64,000 nucleotides of DNA from NCBI GenBank assembly GCA_016931225.1, contig JAFGFE010000040.1:67149-131148 (forward strand), given 5' to 3'. The notes under the pieces were generated by a model, which worked only from the letters and a program-made list of their open reading frames with translations, was not told where the DNA came from and did not search any database. Positions 27,042 through 39,747 of the stretch are shown here, piece by piece. How positions within the stretch are numbered: the stretch's first letter is position 1; every line of letters begins with the position of its first letter. The position numbers and the translations under genes are program-made. The stretch comes from Candidatus Zymogenaceae bacterium (GTDB taxonomy: Bacteria; Desulfobacterota; Zymogenia; Zymogenales; Zymogenaceae).

Positions 27042-28445
27042 TCAGACCAGATCGTACTGCTTCAGGAAACCGTTGAGCCGCGCCTCCAGGAAGGGGAGCA
27101 GTGACTCCCCTTCGGGCGTGCCGTAGAGATTGTTCATCTCCTTCGGGTCACCGACCAGATCGAATATCTCCGACTTCTTCCTGCCGTCGTATACGATATA
27201 TTTGTGGGTATCGGTCCTGACGGCGTAGTGCGGCGGATATCGATAGGGATAGTCCTTGTAGTATTCATAGAGCCAGGCCTCCCTGCCCAGACTGTAGGGA
27301 TTGGTGAAATAGGGCCTGAAGCTTTTCCCCTCCATGTAACTGGGCACGTCGATTCCCGCCAGATCCAGAATCGTCGGCGCAAGGTCCACGTTCAGGACCA
27401 TGCTCGAGACGTTTCGTCCGACGTCCGTCATTCCCCGGGGGTAACGGACGATAAACGGAATCCGCATCGATTCCTCATAGGCCCACCGCTTGTCGATCTG
27501 GTTGTGCTCGCCCCAGAAATAGCCGTTGTCCCCGGCGTAGACCACCACCGTGTCATCGGCGACGCCCATCTCGTCCAGGGTATCGAGCACCCTGCCGATC
27601 TGTTGGTCCAGAGCATAGATGGTCTCGCAGTAGTTTTTGTAGTGCATGTCCACCGAGCCGAACACGCCGAACAGGTGATTCTGGGCCTTGAACAGCACCA
27701 GGGGATTCATCTCATCCGGATAGTTCACCTCCACATCGTGATAGTGATCGGCGAGTTCCGGGGGCGGCAGGAACTGGTGGTGCACCGCCTTGTGGGCGAG
27801 CATCAGGCAGAAGGGATTCTCCCGACCCTTCTTCAGGTATTCGATCGCCCGGTCCGTCAGCTCCTCGGTGATATAGGGTTTTTTCGACGGCTCCTCCACA
27901 CCATTGACGATGAGGGGACAGTTGAAGTATTTCCCCTGTCCGCCCTGGACGGTGAAGGTGGTAAATTCATCCACTCCCCGGAGGTCCGGCAGATCGCCGG
28001 GCATGTGCCATTTGCCGATAAAGGCGGTGTCGTAACCGACTTTTTTCAACAGCTCCATGAAGGTGATGTTGTCGTTGCTCCAGGGGGTGATGTTGTTCTT
28101 GACCCCGTGGGTGTGGGCGTAGGTGCCGGTAATGAAGCTGGCCCGGGAGGGGCTGCAGAGCGACGTCGTCACGAAGGCGTTTTCGAACAGGATCCCCTCG
28201 GCGGCGAGACGGTCCAGGTTCGGCGTCTCGATGAATGGATGGCCCAGGATGCTCAGGTGATCCCAGCGATGATCGTCGCTGAGGATGAATATAATGTTCG
28301 GCCGTTTCCCGCTTGGTTGTGCCTTTAGGAGGTCGGGCATGCCGGCCCCCATCAATCCCGCCGCCGAAGCCGCTCCCATTACCTTGAGGGCCTGGCGCCG
28401 GGTCATCGGCCTTTTAAAGAATGAAGACTCTTTATCCCGTGTCAT
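27042..28445 (-). CDS. Sulfatase (formylglycine-dependent, Cys-type) with a Tat signal peptide.
   Basis: 'MTRRQALKVMGAASAAG' is a twin-arginine signal. 'NIIFILSDDHRWD' and the 'CSPSRASFITG' C-x-P-x-R motif are present. Confidence 0.85.
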   Translation of the reverse strand: MTRDKESSFFKRPMTRRQALKVMGAASAAGLMGAGMPDLLKAQPSGKRPNIIFILSDDHRWDHLSILGHPFIETPNLDRLAAEGILFENAFVTTSLCSPSRASFITGTYAHTHGVKNNITPWSNDNITFMELLKKVGYDTAFIGKWHMPGDLPDLRGVDEFTTFTVQGGQGKYFNCPLIVNGVEEPSKKPYITEELTDRAIEYLKKGRENPFCLMLAHKAVHHQFLPPPELADHYHDVEVNYPDEMNPLVLFKAQNHLFGVFGSVDMHYKNYCETIYALDQQIGRVLDTLDEMGVADDTVVVYAGDNGYFWGEHNQIDKRWAYEESMRIPFIVRYPRGMTDVGRNVSSMVLNVDLAPTILDLAGIDVPSYMEGKSFRPYFTNPYSLGREAWLYEYYKDYPYRYPPHYAVRTDTHKYIVYDGRKKSEIFDLVGDPKEMNNLYGTPEGESLLPFLEARLNGFLKQYDLV

Positions 28446-28479
28446 GATATGTACCTCATAAATCGTATGAACGACTCCC

Positions 28480-29040
28480 TTACACCCCGACTCCAAAGCC
28501 GAAAATCGCCTTGTACCCCTCCTGGAAGGCGTAGAACGAATAGACGCCGATGCCCCAGAAGAGGAAGGAAAGAATCCCCAGCGCCACCACAACGGCCACG
28601 ACCGCCGGCACCGCCGACCCGCGGACATTCTTCTCGATCCTCCTTCGACCGAACAGCTCCGCGATACCCATTTCCAGGAGCGCCAGCGACAGGATGAACA
28701 CGTTCACCGGATTCAGGGTGTAATAGAGGGCCTCGAAGAAGGCGTACACCCCGGTGACGACGATGAATTCCTTGATGATCCAGGCGACGGGAACGAAGAG
28801 GGATCCGAGAATTCGCTCCGCGGCGCCCACCCCCCGTCGATAGGCGATGGGGTATATAATGGCTGCGCTGAAAACCACGCATATCATATGCACCACGCCG
28901 CACACCACCGCTATGATGTGAAACAGGCCCCCGCTGGATATCCGGGCGGCGCCGTTGAATCCGATAAAGGCAACGGCCGCAATCAGAAACAACACCGCCA
29001 CCGGACGCACAATACGCTTCGAACACGGTTGAGTTTCCAT
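28480..29040 (-). CDS. Small polytopic membrane protein, uncharacterized, upstream of and co-oriented with the sulfatase.
   Basis: A 186-aa hydrophobic ORF. No recognisable motif. Confidence 0.4.
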   Translation of the reverse strand: METQPCSKRIVRPVAVLFLIAAVAFIGFNGAARISSGGLFHIIAVVCGVVHMICVVFSAAIIYPIAYRRGVGAAERILGSLFVPVAWIIKEFIVVTGVYAFFEALYYTLNPVNVFILSLALLEMGIAELFGRRRIEKNVRGSAVPAVVAVVVALGILSFLFWGIGVYSFYAFQEGYKAIFGFGVGV

Positions 29041-29208: not shown

Positions 29209-30564
29209 TCAGATTCCCATGATGTGTTTCGTCTCCTCCTGGGAATCCCCCAGCTTGTAGGGAATGAACGCCAGCAGTCCGATCAGGCATGAGAGAGCGC
29301 AGACCATCCAGATGGCGCGAATCCCCAGGGGATTTTCGGCGCTGTATCCCAGCCAGCCGAAAACGCCGGTGAGGATCAAAGAACAGAGCGCCCAGCCGGT
29401 CTTCCTGACGATGCCGTAGATGCCGTAATAGATGGCCTCCTGGCGCTTGCCGGTCTTCAGCTCGTCGTAATCGGTGAGGTCCGCGATGATAATGAGCGAT
29501 CCCAGAAACACCCCGCCGATGGGGATGGCCGCCACCGGAAAGACCAGCATGGCCAGGATCAAGAGATCGATGGAAGTCGGAAACGCCCCGATGAAAAAAC
29601 AGAGGGTGAAACCGACGATCATGGTCACGATCACCCCACGAAAGACCCGCCGCTTCGGGAATTTCGCATAGAGCCAGTACCAGAACGGCATTGACAGGGC
29701 GATGAGGATGATTACCTCCGCCATCAACATCGAGGCCATGCCCTCATCCTTTCCCAGCACCTCGGTGGTCAAATACGGGACGTTCATCAGCATCAACTGA
29801 TAGGTCAGCTGCACCATCATGATCATGATCGCGAATGAGAGCACCTGCCTGTCCGCGAAGACCTGTTTTACCACGGTGAAGAACCGGGGCGTCTCTTGGC
29901 TGTGGTCAATCTCGTGACGCTGATGGATGCCCAGGAGGGTCAATTCGCCCGCGATCAGGCCGAACACCCCCAGCACCAGGGCCATCTTGAGCTCTCCTAA
30001 AGACTCGAACAGCGGGCCGGACAGGCCCCCGCCCACCAGCGCCCCCAGGATGCCGATGGCCACGCCGATGGAGGCGATTTTCGTCCTGACGGTGTTGTCC
30101 GGACTCATCTCCGGCAGTACGGCGAACCAGGGGATCAGCATGCCGGTGTACGAGATATAATAGAAGAACAGCACCACCGCCAGGTACACGGCGTTGATGA
30201 TGCTGGTATCGGCCACCGGCGGCCTCCATACCAGGATGAACGCCAGAAACAGAATCGGGCTGCTGATGAAGATGAAGGGCTTCCTGCGTCCCCATCGGGA
30301 ATTGGTATGATCGGACCAGTACCCCACCAGGGGGTCGGTCAGCGCGTCCAGCACCCGGCCGCCCGCCATGATGATACCCAGGGCCGCCAGGGGGATGAGG
30401 GCCGTGCGCTCCGAGCCCTCCGGCGGCAGGTAGAAGTAGGGAAGCCATGCGTAGAGAATCGTGTCATACAGGTTGAAGCTGAAGCCCGCCAGGTTGTAGA
30501 GAATCATCTCCATGATTGTGACCGGCTTGTCGGCGGCGGGAGGCGGCTGTTTCGATATGTTCAT
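29209..30564 (-). CDS. MFS transporter of the glycoside-pentoside-hexuronide (GPH, MelB-like) cation symporter family.
   Basis: GPH signature 'DALTDPLVGYWSDHTNSRWGRRKPFI'. About 12 TM segments. Confidence 0.8.
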   Translation of the reverse strand: MNISKQPPPAADKPVTIMEMILYNLAGFSFNLYDTILYAWLPYFYLPPEGSERTALIPLAALGIIMAGGRVLDALTDPLVGYWSDHTNSRWGRRKPFIFISSPILFLAFILVWRPPVADTSIINAVYLAVVLFFYYISYTGMLIPWFAVLPEMSPDNTVRTKIASIGVAIGILGALVGGGLSGPLFESLGELKMALVLGVFGLIAGELTLLGIHQRHEIDHSQETPRFFTVVKQVFADRQVLSFAIMIMMVQLTYQLMLMNVPYLTTEVLGKDEGMASMLMAEVIILIALSMPFWYWLYAKFPKRRVFRGVIVTMIVGFTLCFFIGAFPTSIDLLILAMLVFPVAAIPIGGVFLGSLIIIADLTDYDELKTGKRQEAIYYGIYGIVRKTGWALCSLILTGVFGWLGYSAENPLGIRAIWMVCALSCLIGLLAFIPYKLGDSQEETKHIMGI

Positions 30565-30679
30565 AGTCTCCTCCGGGGCGAATTGGAGTTTTTATCCGGC
30601 GAAAGAAAAATATGCGTGTATATTGAACAATTGCGGAGGATTTGTCAAAGCATTTCTCCCGCGTTTCCCCCCCCATTTC

Positions 30680-30708
30680 TTGACAGTGACCCTTCTTTCT
30701 GCCATAGT
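30680..30708 (+). promoter_or_regulatory. Candidate sigma-70 promoter for the M28 peptidase gene.
   Basis: TTGACA at 30680-85, a 17-nt spacer, then CATAGT at 30703-08. It lies 52 nt upstream of the ATG at 30760. The -10 element is weak. Confidence 0.3.
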
Positions 30709-30759
30709 CGAATCGATAGTCTCTCGTGGAAAGCATTCACACTCTCATGCCGGAGGTAC

Positions 30760-31950
30760 ATGATGGCGCTTCGAACGATCATTGACGACATTATCCGGGA
30801 TATCGGCTACCGCACCTCGGGAAGCGAGGGGGAGGCCGCCGCGGCGGGGCACATCGCCCGGGAATTGGAACGCCACGGGGCCCGTGTCTCCATCCAGGAG
30901 CTTCCCTGCCGCCTGAACTACATTCCCGGATTCGCAAACCTCATGATTGGCTCATTCCTGGCGGTGATTGTAATATATCCCTTCGCGCCGGCGGTCAGTG
31001 CAGTCCTCACCGTCGTGATACTGGCGTCGTTCCTCCTTTCCAGAAAGATCGGAAATCAGGTCATCGACTGGATGTTCAAGAAGGGGACGACCCAGAACGT
31101 CATCGGCGTCGTCCCGGCCGGGGGCGAAAAGAAGCACACACTCATCTTTTCCGGACACCACGACTCACCGGACATGATGCCCATCCTCTCACCGCCGTAC
31201 AAGGCGTACGCCCACATCATCGAGACCGTCACCGTGGCGGGGTTCGCCCTGATGATCCCTGCGGGAATACTGCGGGCACTCTTCGGAGACGTATTCTCAT
31301 GGTTTCCCCTGCACGTCGGCTGGTATGACGTCGTCTATCCGCTCTGTGTTTTGGGTTTCGCGGTCGGGGTCTTTTACCGATCGATGGTGGTCACCGGCCG
31401 GAAAAACCTGGGCGCCAACGACAACCTCTCCGCTGTGGCGGTGGTGGCGGGTATCGCCGATTACCTGGCCGCACACCCGACACGGCACACCGAGGTGATG
31501 CTCATCACCTTCGGCAGCGAGGAATCCGGATTCTATGGCTCCCATTATTTCGCCGCCCACAACCGTGACCTCATCAAGGATGCCGTCAACATCAACATAG
31601 AGACGGTGGGTGCGGGGGAGCTTGCAGTCATCGACAGGGAGCGAAACAGCGGCACCTCCTACACCCCCGAGGTGGTCGATATGATCCGCCACGCCGGGGA
31701 GAGGGCGGGGATAGCCCTCGAGTCCGTGACCATTAATTTCGGCGGCACCGACTCCTACGCAATGATAAAAGACGGGGGGAACTCCGCGTGCCTCTTCGGC
31801 ATGGACGAATACCGCCTCTTCCCAAACTGGCACTCCCCGCTGGACGTCCCGGAGAACGTGTCCGAGGAGAAGCTTGAGAAGGCGCTGTCGGTCTGCATCG
31901 AGGCGATCAAGATCGCCGAGGAGGAGGGACTGCCGATACCCACGGCGTAA
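30760..31950 (+). CDS. M28 family zinc aminopeptidase, membrane-anchored.
   Basis: 'FSGHHDS', 'GANDNLSAVAVVAGIADYL' and 'FGSEESGFYGSHYF' are M28 motifs. The start is the ATG at 30760 behind ggagg. The 30307 ORF extension has no support. Confidence 0.7.
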   Translation: MMALRTIIDDIIRDIGYRTSGSEGEAAAAGHIARELERHGARVSIQELPCRLNYIPGFANLMIGSFLAVIVIYPFAPAVSAVLTVVILASFLLSRKIGNQVIDWMFKKGTTQNVIGVVPAGGEKKHTLIFSGHHDSPDMMPILSPPYKAYAHIIETVTVAGFALMIPAGILRALFGDVFSWFPLHVGWYDVVYPLCVLGFAVGVFYRSMVVTGRKNLGANDNLSAVAVVAGIADYLAAHPTRHTEVMLITFGSEESGFYGSHYFAAHNRDLIKDAVNINIETVGAGELAVIDRERNSGTSYTPEVVDMIRHAGERAGIALESVTINFGGTDSYAMIKDGGNSACLFGMDEYRLFPNWHSPLDVPENVSEEKLEKALSVCIEAIKIAEEEGLPIPTA

Positions 31951-32010
31951 TCAATCGCCCTTTGGCGGACGGTCCAGGGAGGTGAGGGAGACGAAGGGGA
32001 GCGAACTTAT
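31951..32010 (-). pseudogene. Relic of the 3' end of a GH114-like gene, a paralogue of the C-terminus of the CDS at 38731..39747.
   Basis: Minus-strand translation '...LPFVSLTSLDRPPKGD*' against 'VPFVSRTPLDRLPDEI*' at 38731. The nucleotide block ggtccagggaggtgagggagacgaagggga is also present at 38750-38790. Confidence 0.4.
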
Positions 32011-32092
32011 AAGAGCGGCAGGAGTGAACTGCCTCTCGGGCGGACTCTGGCTGTATGCAAGGCACCAAGAAAGACGAGGAGCTTTCTTTCTC

Positions 32093-32130
32093 TTTGAAAA
32101 ATAAGGGGGGCCACAACCGGCCCCCCGTTT
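32093..32130. terminator. GC-rich hairpin flanked by an A-run and a T-rich tract, a relic bidirectional terminator.
   Basis: ggggggcc-acaacc-ggcccccc stem-loop. It is homologous to the hairpin at 38608-38631. Confidence 0.45.
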
Positions 32131-32582
32131 CACTTCAAGCCATTTCAGTCAAACATCGAGACCTGCACCGCTTCTTTCTCTTATTCGAATAATACATCCA
32201 TCACGTAAAACACTTCCCGCCGTCAACGACGAAGTCGCCCGAAACCGGAGGTTTTCGTCTGACAGGCGTCATTATCATTTTTTCTATTGAATAATGAGGA
32301 TACTTCCCATAAGATGTACACTCGTAAAACATTATAAAAATTAGGTTTAAATGACAAAAATTGAGGTGATTATTCACGGTTCGTCCGAAAAACCGTAAGA
32401 TACGTGACGATAATCGGGTGGATACCTTTTCTGACCTTTCAAACATTGTTCGAGTAAACACCTATGCGCCTTTTTCCCAGTCTTTACACACGAGCGTGAA
32501 ACGATTCGATATCCATCATGCATCCTATCACGGTGGTAACTCATGTACTATCATCCCATTTCTTAACAAGGAGGCATAGAAA

Positions 32583-34247
32583 ATGGAAGACCGTCTCTGG
32601 CACAAGGCTTATGTACCTGGTATTCCGAAATCCATCGACTATGAGGACCTCACCATAAGTGAGTTCCTCTCCCGAACGGCGAAAAGATTTCCAAAGAGAT
32701 GCGCCCTCACATTTCTCGGTAAGAAGATCTCTTACGCCGAACTGGACGGACTTGCCAATCGTTTTGCAAACGCACTCATAAAACTGGGGGTGAAGCCGGG
32801 TGACCGGGTGGGCCTCTTGATGCCGAATATCCCGCAGATAGTGATCTCCTACTACGGCATCTGGCGCGCCGGGGCGGTGGCCGTGCCGGTCAATCCCCTC
32901 TATACCGATCGGGAGATAGAACATCAGTTCAACAGCTCCGGCACGACTGCGGTCATCACCCTCGACCTCCTGGCGCCGAGGGCGCTTGGCATGAGATCAA
33001 AAACAAAGATACAGACGGTCATCACGGCCCATATCAACGACTATCTCCCCTTTCCCACAAAACAGCTATACCCCTTTGTCAAGAAGGGGATGTATTTCAA
33101 ATACGAAAAGCAGCCGGACTACTACCAATTTTTGGACCTCATGAAGGAGAGCTCTCCGAAATCCTCCGGCGATCCCTCGAAACTCGATGAACTTGCCCTG
33201 ATACCCTATTCAGGCGGCACCACGGGATTGGCAAAGGGGGTAAGCATCAGCCACAGGAACATCTCTTGCATCACCCAGATTCTGCAGACGTGGCTCTACG
33301 ACGTAAAGGAGCAACCCGAATCGGAGCTTGCGATCTTCCCCTTCTTCCACATGGCCGGTTTCACGGCGGTAATGAACGTGTGCATTATAAACGGCTGGAA
33401 CGCCATCCTCGTGCCCCGTCCCGAGCCCCAGATAGTCATGGATATGATAAGAAAGCACAAGCCCTCGATCGTTTTGGCGGTGCCGACCATCTTCGTTGGA
33501 GTTCTGGCCCTGCCCGAGTTTCAAGAGACCGATCTCTCGTTCGTCAAGGGATTTTTCTCCGGCGCGGCGCCGCTCCCCGTGGAAACGATACACACTCTCA
33601 AAGAATCCACAGGGGCGACAATAGTGGAGGGATACGGCATGACCGAATCCACAACCCTCATCACCGTCACGCCGTGGGGGGGAACCCTCAAGCCCGGGAG
33701 CGTCGGCGTGCCTTTTCCGGATACCGACATAAGAATTGTCGATCTTGAGACCGGGGAAAAGGACTTGCCCTTGGGTGAGGAAGGGGAGATCATATTCCGC
33801 GGACCCCAGTTGTGCCAGGGCTATTACAACAACCCGGAAGAGACCGAGAATTCGTTCAGAGACGGGTGGTTCTACACCGGTGATATAGGGAAGATGGACG
33901 AGGACGGCTATCTGTATATCGTTGACAGGAAAAAGGAGATGATTATCGCCGGCGGCTATAACATCTTCCCGAGGGACATCGAAGAGGTACTCTATGAGCA
34001 CCCGAAGATTCTGGAGGCCTGCGTATTGGGCGTGCCCCACGAATATCGCGGGGAGACGGTCAAGGCCTTTGTCGTCCTCAAGCAGGGGGAGACGATAACC
34101 GAAGAAGAGCTGGACGCCTACTGCAGAGAGAATCTCGCGCCCTACAAGGTGCCGAAGCTGTATGAATTCAGGGAGGACCTCCCGAAGTCTGCCATAGGAA
34201 AGATACTCAAAAAGGAGCTGAAGGAATCCCTGAAAGCGGAAAAGTAA
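32583..34247 (+). CDS. AMP-dependent synthetase/ligase (long-chain fatty-acid-CoA ligase-like).
   Basis: AMP-binding motif 'IPYSGGTTGLAKGV', 'GYGMTE', 'YTGDIGKMDEDGYLYIVDRKK'. Confidence 0.85.
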   Translation: MEDRLWHKAYVPGIPKSIDYEDLTISEFLSRTAKRFPKRCALTFLGKKISYAELDGLANRFANALIKLGVKPGDRVGLLMPNIPQIVISYYGIWRAGAVAVPVNPLYTDREIEHQFNSSGTTAVITLDLLAPRALGMRSKTKIQTVITAHINDYLPFPTKQLYPFVKKGMYFKYEKQPDYYQFLDLMKESSPKSSGDPSKLDELALIPYSGGTTGLAKGVSISHRNISCITQILQTWLYDVKEQPESELAIFPFFHMAGFTAVMNVCIINGWNAILVPRPEPQIVMDMIRKHKPSIVLAVPTIFVGVLALPEFQETDLSFVKGFFSGAAPLPVETIHTLKESTGATIVEGYGMTESTTLITVTPWGGTLKPGSVGVPFPDTDIRIVDLETGEKDLPLGEEGEIIFRGPQLCQGYYNNPEETENSFRDGWFYTGDIGKMDEDGYLYIVDRKKEMIIAGGYNIFPRDIEEVLYEHPKILEACVLGVPHEYRGETVKAFVVLKQGETITEEELDAYCRENLAPYKVPKLYEFREDLPKSAIGKILKKELKESLKAEK

Positions 34248-34451
34248 CCCAACGAGGATGCCGAAGACCCGGATATCTCGGGTGTCCATCTGAAGGTACG
34301 GAAGGCGGTTTTTCAAAAAATGTAGAGTCAAGTTAGTTTTTATATAAGATACGGCAGCCGCGGATTGCGCTGACGGTAAGTCCTTTTGAAAGACAATGCT
34401 ACTTCGCCGCGCGACGCCCTTTTCGGCTGCCGTTTCTTTATGCAGTCATTG

Positions 34452-34700
34452 TCAATATGACCCCAGGCCGTCAAGAAAGGCCTTTCGAGGCGTTCGTCCC
34501 TGGCAGTACTTCCCCTGGTTCGTTCGCCCTTCACTGTAATACTGCATGAACCCGTTTAGGTCGACTTGTATCTCCTCAAGGGACCGATAGAGTTCCTTCC
34601 TAAAGGCCACCTCTTAAAACTCATCCTTGATAATCCGGTTCAGGCGCTCCACCGATCCGTTAGTCTGTGGACGTCTGACCCGTGTCCTCATCGCATCCTT
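34452..34700 (-). mobile_element. Truncated, disrupted C-terminal fragment of an IS481-like (rve/DDE integrase core) transposase gene.
   Basis: Minus-strand translation 'DAMRTRVRRPQTNGSVERLNRIIKDEF*EVAFRKELYRSLEEIQVDLNGFMQYYSEGRTNQGKYCQGRTPRKAFLDG'. There is an in-frame stop, no N-terminal catalytic region and no start codon. Flanking sequence is AT-rich. Confidence 0.7.
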
Positions 34701-34768
34701 TTTTATATGAACAATGAGTTATCAGTAAAATCCCCACAATATTAGCTATTTTATGATAAAATATCTTC

Positions 34769-34797
34769 TTGACAAATATATTTTGTTCTGATATTTT
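34769..34797 (+). promoter_or_regulatory. Candidate sigma-70 promoter of the padR-dehydratase-ligase operon.
   Basis: TTGACA at 34769-74, a 17-nt spacer, then TATTTT at 34792-97. It is flanked by inverted repeat AAAATATC (34758-65) and GATATTTT (34790-97), a possible PadR operator. Confidence 0.4.
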
Positions 34798-34870
34798 GCA
34801 GCAAGATAAAAAAGAGAGGATACGTAGGTGTGTTTAATGAGCGGTTTTTCGCATCAGTAATGCGAAGGAG

Positions 34871-35398
34871 GTGGAAAAGATGACGGACGTGCAGTTGATG
34901 ATCCTGGGATTTTTGTCCTCGGGAGCCAAAACCGGTTACCGGCTCAACCAGATTTTCGGCAAGCTCATGCTGTATTACGCGGTGGGACTGAATCAGATTT
35001 ATCCTGTGTTGAAAAATCTGGAGGCCGAGGGTTTGGTAGAAAAAGAGGTCGTCTTCCAGGTGGGCAAGCCCAGCAAGAATGTATACAGCATTACCCCGGC
35101 CGGTCAAGCCTACCTGACCGAGAAACTCACCGGACCGGCCGTGCCCATGGATTATCATCTGCCGTTTTTACAACGAGTGTTTTTTTTCCGCTTTTTAAAC
35201 CACGACCAGGTCCTCGAGGCCTTCCAAAGCGAAATTTGCTCGATCGACGAGCAGATCAACACCCTTGAAGAAATGGAAGACACTGTAAAAGAGTACGCCG
35301 ACACAGACGGCGAGTTTGCGTACCGTACGGCTTTGCATTTTTTGAAATCGTTGGCAGACTGGTACAAGGCCGAATATTCGAAAAGGAGGCAACAGTAG
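34871..35398 (+). CDS. PadR family transcriptional regulator.
   Basis: 'LMILGFLSSGAKTGYRLNQIF...NQIYPVLKNLEAEGLVEKEV' is a PadR winged-HTH. RBS aaggaggtg. Confidence 0.75.
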   Translation: MEKMTDVQLMILGFLSSGAKTGYRLNQIFGKLMLYYAVGLNQIYPVLKNLEAEGLVEKEVVFQVGKPSKNVYSITPAGQAYLTEKLTGPAVPMDYHLPFLQRVFFFRFLNHDQVLEAFQSEICSIDEQINTLEEMEDTVKEYADTDGEFAYRTALHFLKSLADWYKAEYSKRRQQ

Positions 35399-35401
35399 CT
35401 T

Positions 35402-36835
35402 ATGGGCATCAAAACCGGACAGGAATATGTGGAAACCTTACGCCATCAGGCGCCCTGCGTGCACATCGCCGGACAGACGGTGCGAAACGTTGTGGATAAT
35501 CCCCTGTTTGCCACTTCCATCAAGGAAATGGCCAAGTTCTATGATTTTCAAAGCGATCCTGAAACGCGTCAAGACTTTTCCTTCACCTCACCCCTGATTG
35601 ACGAAACCGTGGGATTCTGGACCCATCTGCGCCAGAGTCCGGCCGAATTGGAGGCCATGATTCGGACCATGAAACATTACAATGCCCGACACTTTTGCAC
35701 CATGTGCATGGGCATCGGCCTTTCGGTGATGTGGGCGACCACTTGGGAAATCGACCAGGCCAAAGGCACTCCGTATCACCAGAACTTCCGCCGTTTTTTC
35801 GAAAAGATTCAGCGCGAGGATTTGCGGTACTGCCTTGGCGTCATGGACCCAAAGGGCGACCGATCCAAAGGCCCCGCCGCCCAGGCGGACCCTGACCTTC
35901 ACATACGCGTGGTGGAAAAGCGCTCCAATGGCATTGTGGTTCGCGGGGCCAAGATGCACACCTCCAACGCGCCCATGACCCACTTCTTCTTTGCCATGCC
36001 GTGTCGGGAACTTTCCGAAGCGGACGCCGACTATGCCGTGGCCTTTGTGACGCCCGTGGAGACGCCCGGCATTTCCTACATTACGCGGCCCGCGCCCGGA
36101 CCAGTGGGCGAGCGTCAATTTGAAAGCCCGGTGTCAACGCAAATCGGGTTTACCGAATCGCTCACCGTTTTCGAAGACGTATTCATTCCCTGGGAAAACG
36201 TGTTCATGTGCGGCGAATGGGAATTCACTAGGCAGCTTATTTCCTGCTTTTCACCCTACGTCCGACTGGCCAAAGGGACCTGCACCTCGGCGAGGATCGA
36301 CATTATCGCTGGGGCCGCAGCTTTGGCAGCCCGATACAACGGCACGAGCAAAGCCAGCCACATAAAAAGCAAGATCAACGACATGATGGTCTCCTCACAA
36401 ATCGGATTTGGCTGCGCCCTGGGATCCATCGCCAACGGTTCCATTCACCCGTCCGGCATCCCCATTCCTGACATTTCCATCGCCAATGCGGGCCTGTATC
36501 ATACCAGGCTTCGTCTTGTGGAATTTTTGGGCATGCTCATGGAAATCGCCGGCGGCATTATCACCACCATGCCCATTGAGACCGAATACGGCAACCCGGA
36601 ATTAAAACCTGTTATCGATAAGTATTTGGCCGGAGCGGCTGGAACTCCCACCAGCGACCGCATGCGGCTGATGTACCTGATCCAGGATCTTACCGCCTCG
36701 CGCTTTTCCGGCTATTTGATTTCAAGCGCCATCTGCGCCGGCGGCACCCCCGAAACCTGCCGCCTGGAAGTTGCCCGAAATTACGACTTATTGCGTATGA
36801 CAAACAATGTGTGCGCCATGTGCGGTATCGACTAA
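35402..36835 (+). CDS. 4-hydroxybutyryl-CoA dehydratase / 4-hydroxyphenylacetate 3-hydroxylase (AbfD/HpaB) family protein.
   Basis: The 'GVMDPKGDRSKGPAAQADPDLHIRVVEKRSNGIVVRGAKMH' block matches the AbfD 'DPKGDR...PSAQKDPDLFLRIVEKREDGIVVRGAKAH' region, with overall collinearity to AbfD. Confidence 0.7.
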   Translation: MGIKTGQEYVETLRHQAPCVHIAGQTVRNVVDNPLFATSIKEMAKFYDFQSDPETRQDFSFTSPLIDETVGFWTHLRQSPAELEAMIRTMKHYNARHFCTMCMGIGLSVMWATTWEIDQAKGTPYHQNFRRFFEKIQREDLRYCLGVMDPKGDRSKGPAAQADPDLHIRVVEKRSNGIVVRGAKMHTSNAPMTHFFFAMPCRELSEADADYAVAFVTPVETPGISYITRPAPGPVGERQFESPVSTQIGFTESLTVFEDVFIPWENVFMCGEWEFTRQLISCFSPYVRLAKGTCTSARIDIIAGAAALAARYNGTSKASHIKSKINDMMVSSQIGFGCALGSIANGSIHPSGIPIPDISIANAGLYHTRLRLVEFLGMLMEIAGGIITTMPIETEYGNPELKPVIDKYLAGAAGTPTSDRMRLMYLIQDLTASRFSGYLISSAICAGGTPETCRLEVARNYDLLRMTNNVCAMCGID

Positions 36836-36870
36836 CAACCCACGGTAAACACTCACAGGAGGTATTTGAG

Positions 36871-38469
36871 ATGAGCAGCGCAAATCCCAATATCGACAAA
36901 CTTGCGACCGAATCCACTCTGGCACTCATGCTGGAAAACCGGGCCGCCGACCTTGCCGGCCACACGGCCCTGATGTTCAGGGGCACGTCATGGACCTATC
37001 AGGAACTCAACGAAACCGCCGACCGGCTGGCCACGGCCCTGCTGAAACTCGGGGTCACGAAGGACGACCGCATCGCCGTGATCATGCCCACCCGACCCGA
37101 ATGGTTGTTCGTGTGGTTCGCGGCGGCAAAGATCGGATGCAGCGTGGTTGGGCTCAATTTTAGGTATAAGCAGGATGAAGTGGTATACATGGTCGGCGAA
37201 GCCCAGCCCCGATTCATGGTCTGTATCAGCGAATTCGCTGGAATCAATTATGCAGACTTTTTCGCGGGCATCCGCGATAAGATCCCCAGCCTCGAGCATT
37301 TTATTTTTCTGGGACACACCAATCACCCTGGGGCCCTGGATCTAGACACTCTCCTGGAAACGCCGGCGGACGAGAAGCTTCTGAAAGACGTCCGGCAAAA
37401 AGTTCGGCCCGAGGCCGACCATTTCATCATTTTCACCTCGGGCAGCACGGGACGGCCCAAGGGTGCGGTGCTTACCCAAAAGAGCATTATGGCCATGCTT
37501 CGGCCCTGGGCCAAAACCATGGAACTGGTCACCGACGACCTGCTTTTAAACGTGCTGCCCATCAATCATGTGGGTGGAGGCACCCTGTGTGCCATGGGGA
37601 CGATGGCTTCGGGCGCGCGGCTGATGCTCTGCGACGTCTTTGATCCATCCGCGGGTCTGGATATAATTGCCGAACACCGGATAACCGTCTTTGGCGGCGT
37701 CCCCACGGTTTTCGCACTTTTCTTCAGCCTGCCGAATTTCGACAAGAATAAGCTGAATAGCGTCAAAATGATGATATACGGCGGATCTCCGGCTACGCCG
37801 GATCTGCTCAAAGCCATGGTCGACAATACCAGCGCCGTGATCCTCGCCTGTTACGGGGCCACCGAGGTATCCGGATTCTGTACGTACACCACCCGGCAGG
37901 ATCCGATTCAAAAGGTACTGGACAACACCGTGGGTCGTGCGCCCGAGGGCGTAGAGCTTTCGATCGTGGATCCCACGAACCATGAACCTCAAACGATCGG
38001 GGAGGTGGGTGAAGTGGCCGTTCGAGGCGACCTTCTTATCGATCGTTACCTGAATGCACCGGACATGACCGCTCAATCCTTTGACAAAGATGGTTGGTTC
38101 TATACCGGCGACATGGGCTTTCTGGATAAGGACGGGTACCTGAGCCTGGTGGGGCGGTACAAGGAAATGTATATCTGCGGCGGATTCAATGTGTACCCCA
38201 AGGAAGTAGAAGACATACTCATGCAGCACCCGGCCGTGGCCATGGCCGCGGTATTGGGCGTGCCCCATCCCAAGATGGGCGAGGCCGGCATGGCTTTTAT
38301 TATGCGGAAACCGGGGAGCACAGTTGACCCTGAAGCTCTCAAAGCTCTCTGCGCCGACCACCTGGCCGACTACAAAGTACCGACTGAGGTTATCATCCGT
38401 GACACGCTTCCCATGACCGCCCTTGGCAAAATCCATAAACCTACTTTGTATGAGGAACTCAAGCAATAG
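36871..38469 (+). CDS. AMP-dependent synthetase/ligase (acyl- or aryl-CoA ligase).
   Basis: 'IIFTSGSTGRPKGAV', 'YGATE', 'YTGDMGFLDKDGYLSLVGRYK'. The start is the ATG at 36871 behind aggagg. Confidence 0.85.
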   Translation: MSSANPNIDKLATESTLALMLENRAADLAGHTALMFRGTSWTYQELNETADRLATALLKLGVTKDDRIAVIMPTRPEWLFVWFAAAKIGCSVVGLNFRYKQDEVVYMVGEAQPRFMVCISEFAGINYADFFAGIRDKIPSLEHFIFLGHTNHPGALDLDTLLETPADEKLLKDVRQKVRPEADHFIIFTSGSTGRPKGAVLTQKSIMAMLRPWAKTMELVTDDLLLNVLPINHVGGGTLCAMGTMASGARLMLCDVFDPSAGLDIIAEHRITVFGGVPTVFALFFSLPNFDKNKLNSVKMMIYGGSPATPDLLKAMVDNTSAVILACYGATEVSGFCTYTTRQDPIQKVLDNTVGRAPEGVELSIVDPTNHEPQTIGEVGEVAVRGDLLIDRYLNAPDMTAQSFDKDGWFYTGDMGFLDKDGYLSLVGRYKEMYICGGFNVYPKEVEDILMQHPAVAMAAVLGVPHPKMGEAGMAFIMRKPGSTVDPEALKALCADHLADYKVPTEVIIRDTLPMTALGKIHKPTLYEELKQ

Positions 38470-38483
38470 CTTATGAATTTTCT

Positions 38484-38590
38484 GATCCAGTATGAGTATT
38501 ATCGGGAGGGTGCCGTTACCCGACGACGACCGTCCGGATATCACTAAGCGCAACCCGAAAGAGCCCGATCATACCGGTCAGGGCGGGAAA
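38484..38590 (+). repeat. Intergenic mosaic of fragments copied from the retropepsin-like gene (40611-40683 and 41311-41330).
   Basis: A roughly 65-bp block 'acgaccgtccggatatcactaagcgcaacccgaaagagcccgatcataccggtcagggcggg' is near-identical to 40611-40676, with 3 mismatches. 'tattatcgggagggtg' matches 41314-41330. Confidence 0.6.
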
Positions 38591-38600
38591 CCTGCTTTTG

Positions 38601-38640
38601 GAAAAAAAGAGGGGCCATAACCGGCCCCTCTTTTCATTTC
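38601..38640. terminator. Bidirectional rho-independent terminator between convergent genes.
   Basis: Stem agaggggcc/ggcccctct with loop ataacc. It is flanked by A7 upstream and T4 downstream. Confidence 0.55.
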
Positions 38641-38730
38641 ATACAAACAGAGAAAACTGTACCGCTTCTTTTTTCGCTTTATCCGTGGCGGTTTCTATCT
38701 CATCGGTACGTATCGACGTCCGGGTCGAAA

Positions 38731-39747
38731 TCAGATCTCATCCGGCAGGCGATCCAGGGGGGTGCGGGAGACGAAGGGGACGAATCCGAGAGAACGAGAG
38801 TAACGAATCGCCTCCCTTGCGTTTTCCGAGTCTACACAGTAATCCACGGTGAACACCGGGAGCCCCGCTTCCCGGTATATCGTGAGCACCCGGGCGATGT
38901 CCTCCCGGCACCACTCACACATACCCCGCTCGGTCTCGATGTCGCCGGAGCGCCTGCTCTCCCACTCCACATCGCCGTCGCCGGAATAGGAGAGGTCCTC
39001 AACGGCCACGGCGTCTATCACATCGAGATACTCATCGGCATTCACCACCAGGTACGGGGCGTTCTGGGGCACCACGAGAAAATCCGGGTTTTTTCCCCTT
39101 GCGTACGCCCGGATCTCCCCGATGAAGCGCACCATCTCTTCCGCGGTGTTCAATCGCAAGTCTTCCGCGCGGCCCGCCACCAACTCATTGTCGTAGGCCT
39201 CCACCCAGTCCAGGTATATGCCGTCGAATCCGAGCTCAATGATCCGATCCAGGACGCTTCCGGCGCCGTATATCACAATTTCCTTCCACCGAAAATCCCA
39301 GTACGCCACCGGGTAGTTGCCGGCCCAGCCGTCCGGGTCCCGGCCCACCATGAAATCCGGCGTGCCGCCTCGAAAAAAGGTGGGGGGAGTCCAGTCGTCG
39401 GCGAAGTAGCTTCGCCACTCCTCCGCCTGACCGATATCCACATACGCCAGCACCACACTGCGATATCCGGGGAGGGATGCGAGGGTCGATTTGAGACGAT
39501 CTACCATCCCCCGGGCGTCGAAGCCCGCGTATTCATCCATGGTCGCCATCGGCTCCACCACCACCATGTCAAATCCGGCCGCCGCGAGACGCCCCAATCT
39601 TTCCGGATATTCGAGCCCCTGAAGCTGATAGCCCCAGCTCTTCACCTCATGAAGGGGTATGGGAGGCGTCTCCTGGGCGGGGGCGGGTCCGGCGCACACT
39701 GCACAGAGCAACCCACATACCATCACACTACGGGCGGCTTGTTTCAT
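38731..39747 (-). CDS. Secreted glycoside hydrolase family 114-like (endo-alpha-1,4-polygalactosaminidase-like TIM-barrel) protein.
   Basis: Signal peptide 'MKQAARSVMVCGLLCAVCAGPAPA' with ggagg RBS. 'SWGYQLQG' and the overall pattern resemble GH114/TM1410-like proteins. The family call rests on sequence pattern only. Confidence 0.5.
   Translation of the reverse strand: MKQAARSVMVCGLLCAVCAGPAPAQETPPIPLHEVKSWGYQLQGLEYPERLGRLAAAGFDMVVVEPMATMDEYAGFDARGMVDRLKSTLASLPGYRSVVLAYVDIGQAEEWRSYFADDWTPPTFFRGGTPDFMVGRDPDGWAGNYPVAYWDFRWKEIVIYGAGSVLDRIIELGFDGIYLDWVEAYDNELVAGRAEDLRLNTAEEMVRFIGEIRAYARGKNPDFLVVPQNAPYLVVNADEYLDVIDAVAVEDLSYSGDGDVEWESRRSGDIETERGMCEWCREDIARVLTIYREAGLPVFTVDYCVDSENAREAIRYSRSLGFVPFVSRTPLDRLPDEI

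Follow-up and report, generated by a model that had tools for sequence, protein, structure and literature searches.

A 6.7-kb segment (32060-38730) of the 64-kb stretch of Candidatus Zymogenaceae bacterium DNA analysed here (hereafter the window, its source being a metagenome-assembled genome, MAG) lies between a gene for an M28 peptidase and a gene for a GH114-family glycoside hydrolase, and a repeat finder shows it to be flanked by two pairs of direct repeats. These repeats are probably a scar, left when DNA was long ago inserted into the final ~35 codons of GH114, at the place where this gene originally adjoined M28 tail to tail. The insertion point lies inside the GH114 coding region, ~109 nucleotides (nt) from its stop codon, and this segment is now found on both sides of the insert: GH114 is intact by virtue of the right-hand copy (A_R), and a frameshifted left-hand copy (A_L) is stranded beside M28. 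As the repeat is 109 nt long, it cannot result from the short target duplication that a transposon makes. Read in this way, the locus would be a comparatively dated example of a metabolic block that enters a chromosome without destroying the target gene, leaving a scar which outlasts the machinery.

The initial annotation of this DNA described three same-strand blocks, A, B and C, in the order A-B-C on the left and B-C-A on the right, and we find all of them on the plus strand, essentially where it had placed them and in that order. Alignment of the two junctions, which it had proposed as a check, gives scores of 52 (A) and 62 (B-C), against ~16-17 ± 2 for shuffled sequence. Block A (31964-32005 vs. 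38744-38784) shares 36 of 41 aligned bases with one 1-nt gap (shuffles 16.0 ± 2.1), whilst B and C are a single continuous repeat of 85 nt on the left (32093-32177) and 75 nt on the right (38597-38671), with 62/75 positions identical (82.7%) plus one 10-nt indel (shuffles 16.8 ± 2.3, the observed score being ~20 standard deviations above). Blocks A, B and C each occur in exactly two copies within the window, where the chance expectation is 0 matches for A and C and 0.46 for the hairpin core of B (two or more matches arose in 6 of 100 shuffles). Overall, the repeat copies are ~77-88% identical. Pairwise alignment within the window recovered no significant similarity past C or past block A, and left of B only weak similarity over ~20-30 nt.

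Block A had been proposed to be the real 3' coding end of GH114, with its left copy an orphan tail that lacks a gene body, and both proposals are borne out, the functional end being A_R (38731-38838) and the orphan being longer than block A and frameshifted. An nhmmer profile of five genuine GH114 3' ends recovers the real gene and, when run over the whole window, also 31953-32059 (E = 8e-10); this second match spans profile positions 3-108 and is put out of frame by a 1-nt insertion. The relic is therefore ~109 nt in length (the stop and last ~35 codons), exceeding the 37-nt block A; its identity drops with distance from the stop codon, and its full extent is visible only with the profile of homologous 3' ends, not by pairwise alignment. 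The minus-strand reading of 31951-32133 ends in LPFVSLTSLDRPPKGD and a stop, GH114 itself in GFVPFVSRTPLDRLPDEI and a stop, and the complement of the relic's stop codon abuts the stop codon of M28 with zero bases between them. L007 (labels L001-L107 denote loci of related uncultured deltaproteobacterial genomes, mostly short metagenomic contigs) has no insert and aligns colinearly with 31618-32000, through the end of M28 and into the relic, hence the left A block occupies the position that the real GH114 3' end holds in an empty site. The C-terminus of GH114, PFVSRTPLDRLP, is kept in all in-group homologues, the sole exception being a Val-to-Ile change in the lineage we designate S2, and the relics share the same start and a 9-nt extension specific to the in-group. 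The relic of L010, from a sister genome, has two insertions against the GH114 profile, of 8 nt and 1 nt; A_L is therefore not under coding constraint and is non-coding. For annotation, the 60-codon open reading frame (ORF) spanning 31951-32133 is no gene but a pseudo-fragment.

Related genomes identify 32060-38730 as inserted DNA, because the outer synteny is conserved around it and because empty sites exist. The conserved order is MFS-M28 on the left and GH114-U504-NMT1_3-YidD-ACAD on the right, and the synteny of U504, a gene of ~500 amino acids (aa) adjoining GH114, is kept in all relatives. In the empty sites of L005 (GCA_016929395.1) and L006, GH114 (60-62% identical) is convergent with M28, with ~60-80 nt between the stop codons and no hairpin; L017 also has M28 and GH114 adjacent (tblastn). 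In L007 the two stop codons are 6 nt apart and GH114 is 79-82% identical (L007/L107); L107, an independent assembly from another sample, is 99.75% identical to L007 and reads MFS-M28-GH114. This cassette-free adjacency in L005, L006, L017 and L007/L107 confirms the earlier suggestion that M28 and GH114 were once convergent neighbours, and the comparison of synteny which was to decide it finds the pair both without the cassette and, in the sister, with it.

The sister genome exhibits the same layout as the window. On its left side, L010 (M28 85% identical) aligns with window 31838-32260, an alignment that takes in the relic, the spacer, B (slightly damaged), C (decayed) and a further 70 nt. On its right side, L102, from the same sample as L010, contains ligase 2 preceded by the tail of the HpaB-family gene. 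In window orientation L102 ends with the 19 nt with which L008 begins, and L008 then continues with B-C, A and GH114 (81%). The S2 lineage is filled differently: in L011, L013 and L014 (M28 75%) the relic directly follows M28 (profile positions 1-64, E = 1e-10) and is succeeded by unrelated AT-rich DNA and then a GAF gene, whilst the right side, represented by L001, L003 and L004 from those samples (GH114 72%), reads WG-repeat gene, B-like hairpin, GH114; the hairpin is present on the GH114 side only. A B-like hairpin also follows GH114 in L009, and in L015 and L016 one lies 75 nt past M28 with no relic. As the relic occurs in three lineages, the closest at a synonymous divergence (dS) of ~0.4-0.5 in the flanking genes, the duplication of A is old, and it is probably older than the present cassette, because the relic also occurs in a lineage with different cargo.

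The B-C module contains a hairpin whose perfect stem has 8-9 GC pairs, lengthened by A-T pairs in the right copy (B_R), and which is preceded by an A-run and followed by a T-run. The better T-run is on the minus strand, where the tails of the two hairpin copies are TTATTTTTC and TCTTTTTTTCC, the latter being that of B_R. A GC stem-loop with a U-run, predicted at -20.7 to -23.5 kcal/mol, is the form of a Rho-independent terminator, and B resembles the bidirectional terminators of this type found between convergent genes in its perfect stem, its A-run and T-run and its position between convergent units. It differs from what an ancestral M28/GH114 terminator would be in that empty sites are without B, and its terminator role is a prediction from sequence. 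Neither the hairpin nor block C is present in any of the empty-site genomes examined, so B-C came with the inserted DNA, and the suggestion that M28 and GH114 had originally shared terminator B does not hold. When B-C was considered as a dispersed repeat (of the repetitive extragenic palindrome or miniature inverted-repeat transposable element kind), it had two copies in the 64-kb window, and the hairpin was found solely at this locus among 103 related or fetched loci. Three exact matches to the B hairpin occur in viral contigs; they are ordinary terminators, and their surroundings do not resemble those of B. A shared hairpin is thus no proof of homology by itself, and claims need the hairpin plus its flanks.

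The copies of B-C exhibit a crosswise relationship between genomes. In sister contig L008, the B-C copy beside GH114 has 86% identity with the left copy of the window over 80 nt (32107-32186), and its core shares ~71-76% with the right copy. Similarly, the 10-nt indel sequence is carried by the left copy in the window but by the right copy in the sister, the remaining two copies being without it. These patterns hint at exchange or gene conversion between B-C copies in short segments.

Judged from its genes and their copies elsewhere, the cargo is a mosaic of a relocated ligase, an insertion sequence (IS) relic and a padR-hpaB-family-ligase operon. A Pfam scan bore out the genes which had been listed between the repeats (ligase 1, the rve_3 relic, PadR, the HpaB/AbfD-family enzyme and ligase 2), and a scan against NCBIfam gave no match reaching a curated cut-off for the cargo. 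A copy of ligase 1 is present in an unrelated context in L026 (9988-11655, JGI contig Ga0180432_10002710) at 87% nucleotide and 89% aa identity, the homology being confined to 32570-34237, from 13 nt before the ATG to 10 nt before the stop. The padR-hpaB-ligase trio has the same order as an operon in L103, and a promoter-like site precedes padR at 34769-34797. In the sister contig L102, the C-terminal 97 codons of the HpaB-family protein are 99% identical in protein sequence and ligase 2 is 94% aa identical (P0162). The insert has 52.7% GC vs. 58-60% in the flanks. Between window and sister, dS amounts to 0.24 (ligase 2) and 0.21 (HpaB-family fragment) in the cargo vs. 0.37 (M28) and 0.52 (GH114) in the flanks, and sister homology breaks exactly at the stop codon of ligase 2: its last 80 nt are ~96% identical and the sequences are unalignable right after it, with homology resuming at ~38581, 16 nt before B_R. 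With cargo dS below flank dS and this abrupt break, the cargo has a history separate from that of its flanks. The cluster of two ligases and the HpaB-family gene is best regarded as accessory DNA, exchanged recently, and not as part of the lineage's core metabolism.

Features of the M28-GH114 region, with window coordinates
Feature	Coordinates	Strand	Basis and remarks
MFS transporter	29209-30564	-	left flank
M28 peptidase	30763-31950	+	Pfam Peptidase_M28; left core flank, ancestral convergent neighbour of GH114
A_L, displaced decaying GH114 3' end (last ~35 codons and stop)	31951-32059	-	nhmmer profile; colinearity with L007
Left spacer, relic to hairpin	32060-32092	.	conserved with sister contig L010 (alignment)
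B_L, GC-rich hairpin with A-run and T-run, bidirectional intrinsic-terminator form	32093-32137	.	repeat D2; -20.7/-21.5 kcal/mol
C_L, second half of B-C repeat	32141-32186	.	repeat D6
AT-rich region (40% GC) upstream of ligase 1	32187-32582	.	32187-32260 conserved in L010
Acyl-CoA ligase 1	32583-34247	+	Pfam AMP-binding, AMP-binding_C; cargo
DDE transposase C-terminal relic (rve-type, IS481/IS3-like)	34452-34691	-	two ORF fragments; joined, Pfam rve_3 E = 1e-7
PadR-family regulator, first gene of three-gene operon	34871-35398	+	Pfam PadR; cargo
HpaB/AbfD-family enzyme	35402-36835	+	Pfam HpaB_N, HpaB; cargo
Acyl-CoA ligase 2	36871-38469	+	Pfam AMP-binding; ORF opens at 36811, homologues start at 36871; cargo
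Spacer without counterpart in sister genome	38470-38580	.	alignment of window with L102 and L008
B_R, predicted hairpin terminator downstream of GH114 (minus strand) and ligase 2 (plus strand)	38597-38641	.	repeat D2; -22.2/-23.5 kcal/mol
C_R, second half of B-C repeat	38635-38680	.	repeat D6; alignment
A_R, functional GH114 3' end, partner of A_L	38731-38838	-	homologue comparison; nhmmer profile
GH114-family glycoside hydrolase, 338 aa	38731-39747	-	Pfam Glyco_hydro_114; right core flank, insertion target

Several further observations concern the flanks and the edges of the cargo. The GH114 protein has a 100% identical counterpart, P0001, in a 'Deltaproteobacteria bacterium' MAG. The mechanical ORF of M28 (30307-31950, 547 aa) overlaps the opposite-strand MFS gene; M28 homologues are 391-395 aa long and the true start is most likely the ATG at 30763. 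No mosaic structure was seen in M28: its identity to L010 varies little along the gene, rising only slightly towards the 3' end. A scan of a genome collection with M28 (the collection being one without the window's genome) returned distant relatives only, 37-54% identical. In L018-L021 (Candidatus Zymogenaceae and other delta-proteobacterial MAGs, M28 37-53%) it is not GH114 that converges with M28 but an AMP-binding ligase sharing 37-38% identity with ligase 2, and L018 also has an HpaB-family gene 7.6 kb away, which may be a coincidence or an older association. L010, L011 and L015 have two MFS_2 genes to the left of M28, the M28-proximal one being 56-60% identical to the single MFS of the window, whilst the window and empty-site L107 have the distal-type MFS only (89-93% identical), directly beside M28; as the MFS_2 count differs among relatives, the left side too has lost or gained an entire transporter gene. 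Upstream of ligase 1, 32200-32260 is ~80% conserved with L010 and contains a small hairpin, GACGAAGTCGCCCGAAACCGGAGGTTTTCGTC, which the scan also reports as a minus-strand terminator-like site; an 86-aa minus-strand ORF in 32187-32582 has no Pfam match. The edge at 38470-38580 is a sharp replacement breakpoint. Neighbours of the ligase copy in L026 include a sulfatase gene and a gene of 190 aa that is a paralogue of window 27042-29040. Contigs of at least ten independent assemblies (L001-L004, L007-L010, L013-L016, L102) end ~0.05-1.2 kb from the M28/GH114 junction, which suggests strain-level heterogeneity or repeats in natural populations; the locus accounts for the assembly breaks of this clade here.

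In the history that we favour, a circular DNA which bore its own copy of the 3' end of GH114 would have integrated by a single crossover (Campbell-type), either site-specific or homologous, and integration would have rebuilt the gene and displaced its original end, as with prophage e14 at icd/icdC. The inserted DNA would have given GH114 a new intrinsic terminator, B, together with C. In a second, similar step, a circular or incoming segment with a copy of B-C may have recombined at the resident B-C and so produced the inner repeat; two successive Campbell-type steps would yield nested direct repeats, with A outside and B-C inside. The cargo would have turned over since, taking in the relocated ligase gene, an IS that is now a relic and the padR-hpaB-family-ligase operon, and the direct repeats would permit loss or exchange of cargo by recombination. 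As no recombinase remains, the islet is presumably now fixed or moved solely by homologous recombination. For L007, loss of the insert by recombination between the A copies and recurrent insertion both fit. The initial annotation had a cassette inserted with partial duplication of the junction: the duplication stands, in the form of the 109-nt GH114 3' end, whilst a single recent event does not, the layout being common to the sister and the relic being found with other cargo. Its history is largely right, and the corrections are that 109 nt of the GH114 end are duplicated, that B was not the original terminator and that the event is old, common to other species and earlier than at least part of today's cargo.

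A number of points weigh against this insertion history. A Pfam scan of the insert ORFs and the immediate core flanks found no integrase, excisionase, phage or conjugation genes, the sole trace of mobility being the internal transposase relic. Binned identity along GH114 shows no jump in divergence at the 3' end, and a replacement of that end by one borne on the element was rejected, as it would leave a discontinuity. When the relics were compared with empty-site and functional alleles, the informative sites of S2 were divided 11:6:6, a weak hint of the empty-site type that is not significant, and the window and L010 gave none; the relics are thus not clearly nearer to the empty-site allele than to the functional copies. 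In the GH114 tree the empty-site L007 is nested within the island-bearing clade, and therefore a secondary precise loss or repeated insertion must be assumed; nearest relatives differ from gene to gene, so recombination among lineages blurs the tree. To obtain C'B'-A at one end but A-C'B' at the other, one must invoke either two steps or an element whose attachment region is flanked by B-C on each side, and both solutions are ad hoc. Finally, several linkages between short contigs rest on sample co-occurrence and the 19-nt overlap instead of continuous sequence.

Chance similarity, or an artefact in the assembly of a metagenomic contig, might be suspected as the source is a MAG and each block is short, but the alignment scores lie 17-20 standard deviations over shuffles, the profile match has E = 8e-10 and the same left and right junctions were found independently in another sample and species, and this reading is already refuted. 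A history without any mobile element deserves more weight, although we consider it unlikely: slippage or unequal crossing-over would first have duplicated the GH114 3' end locally as a short tandem, and separate illegitimate or IS-mediated insertions would then have brought unrelated DNA between the copies, with B-C a second local duplication. The lack of an integrase or other element gene in the insert, a heterogeneous cargo which differs between lineages, the smooth GH114 3' end, and relics in the window and L010 that are equidistant from functional and empty-site alleles are all consistent with it. Yet a 109-nt tandem repeat is unstable unless its copies are soon separated, at least three independent events between the same two copies are needed, and a terminator module at both ends of the cargo in direct orientation is left unexplained. 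We give still less credence to a recurrent site-specific hotspot, in which the window and sister, S2 and others would have been struck independently, each acquiring its own relic, and L007 never hit. The nested position of L007 among island-bearing genomes would follow naturally, as would the length of the relic (~64 nt in S2 vs. ~107 nt in the window), the variation of cargo by lineage and the at least ten independent-assembly contigs that end ~0.05-1.2 kb from the junction. Against this, no recombinase is seen in any version, the relics share their start and the in-group 9-nt extension, so that a single origin with one loss fits equally, and recombination among lineages weakens arguments from the tree.

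Other readings concern the B-C module in particular, and both are highly improbable in our estimation. One is that B-C is kept twice by function, for example as a small RNA, a 3' untranslated-region element or a protein-binding site, its two copies reflecting selection and not insertion history. The sister core beside GH114, 86% identical to the window's left copy over 80 nt, would agree with this, as would the good folding of both copies on either strand (z-scores -2.3 to -4.0). However, an Rfam search of 31800-39000 gave only sub-threshold noise (best E-value 0.37), so B-C is not a known RNA family, and 86% is about the neutral expectation at the cassette dS of 0.21-0.24. Moreover, the left copy of L010 is decaying, with a mismatch in the stem of B and C largely lost, C is missing beside the hairpin in L009 and S2, and the same hairpin motif occurs without the flanks in unrelated viral contigs. 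The other is that the M28/GH114 junction is a dedicated cassette-exchange site, with B-C and/or the GH114 3' end serving as the site of a recombinase encoded elsewhere. Slight as its chances are, this reading is compatible with the variation of cargo between lineages, the swapped indel state of B-C and the repeated assembly breaks at the locus; if true, multi-gene cargo would be swapped without a linked integrase, an undescribed integron-like or 'tycheposon-like' hotspot.

An old insertion into the GH114 3' end can be set beside several known systems. A composite transposon or IS insertion was rejected, as there is one internal transposase relic only and the duplication is ~109 nt and not 2-14 bp. 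An integron gene cassette was likewise rejected: B is a perfect GC stem with a T-run, the form of a terminator, the unit comprises four genes plus an IS relic, and no intI was found in the insert or adjacent flanks, the region scanned. Campbell-type integration, as used with suicide plasmids, has the same outcome, a direct duplication flanking the insert, and accounts for both the A and the B-C pairs; it is a laboratory paradigm and the natural circular intermediate here is hypothetical. Islands at the 3' ends of tRNA and tmRNA genes are bounded by a direct repeat of the target 3' end (attL/attR) around variable cargo, and filled and empty sites coexist. The window insert is similar in its repeat-bounded variable cargo, its filled and empty sites and its lineage-specific gene content, and differs in having a protein-coding target, repeats of ~77-88% identity, no integrase in the insert and a length of only 6.7 kb.

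The closest likeness is to the cryptic prophage e14 at icd/icdC in E. coli, where recombination between icd and icdC deletes the element (PMC13626634). As with e14 (and phage 21) in icd, the target is the 3' end of a protein-coding gene, which is kept intact by having that end twice, as a direct repeat; the outer copy, like icdC, amounts to a C-terminal fragment without function. In the e14 case the two copies can recombine, which removes the insert and rebuilds a chimeric gene, and at our locus such an event would account for empty sites such as L007. The two differ in that e14 encodes its own integrase and excises on SOS induction, whereas the window insert has no recombinase or phage gene, carries catabolic cargo and has a relic that is already frameshifted. 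Of the features that define the e14/icd type, the locus has the direct 3'-end repeat at both ends, one functional and one pseudo copy and empty sites in relatives; a tyrosine or serine integrase beside the attachment site was not found in a scan of all insert ORFs and the conserved core flanks. The locus therefore works like an e14/icd scar, yet we do not class it as such an element because the defining integrase is missing. Nothing here challenges current understanding: the locus represents ordinary genome plasticity and adds another case of a known type of rearrangement.

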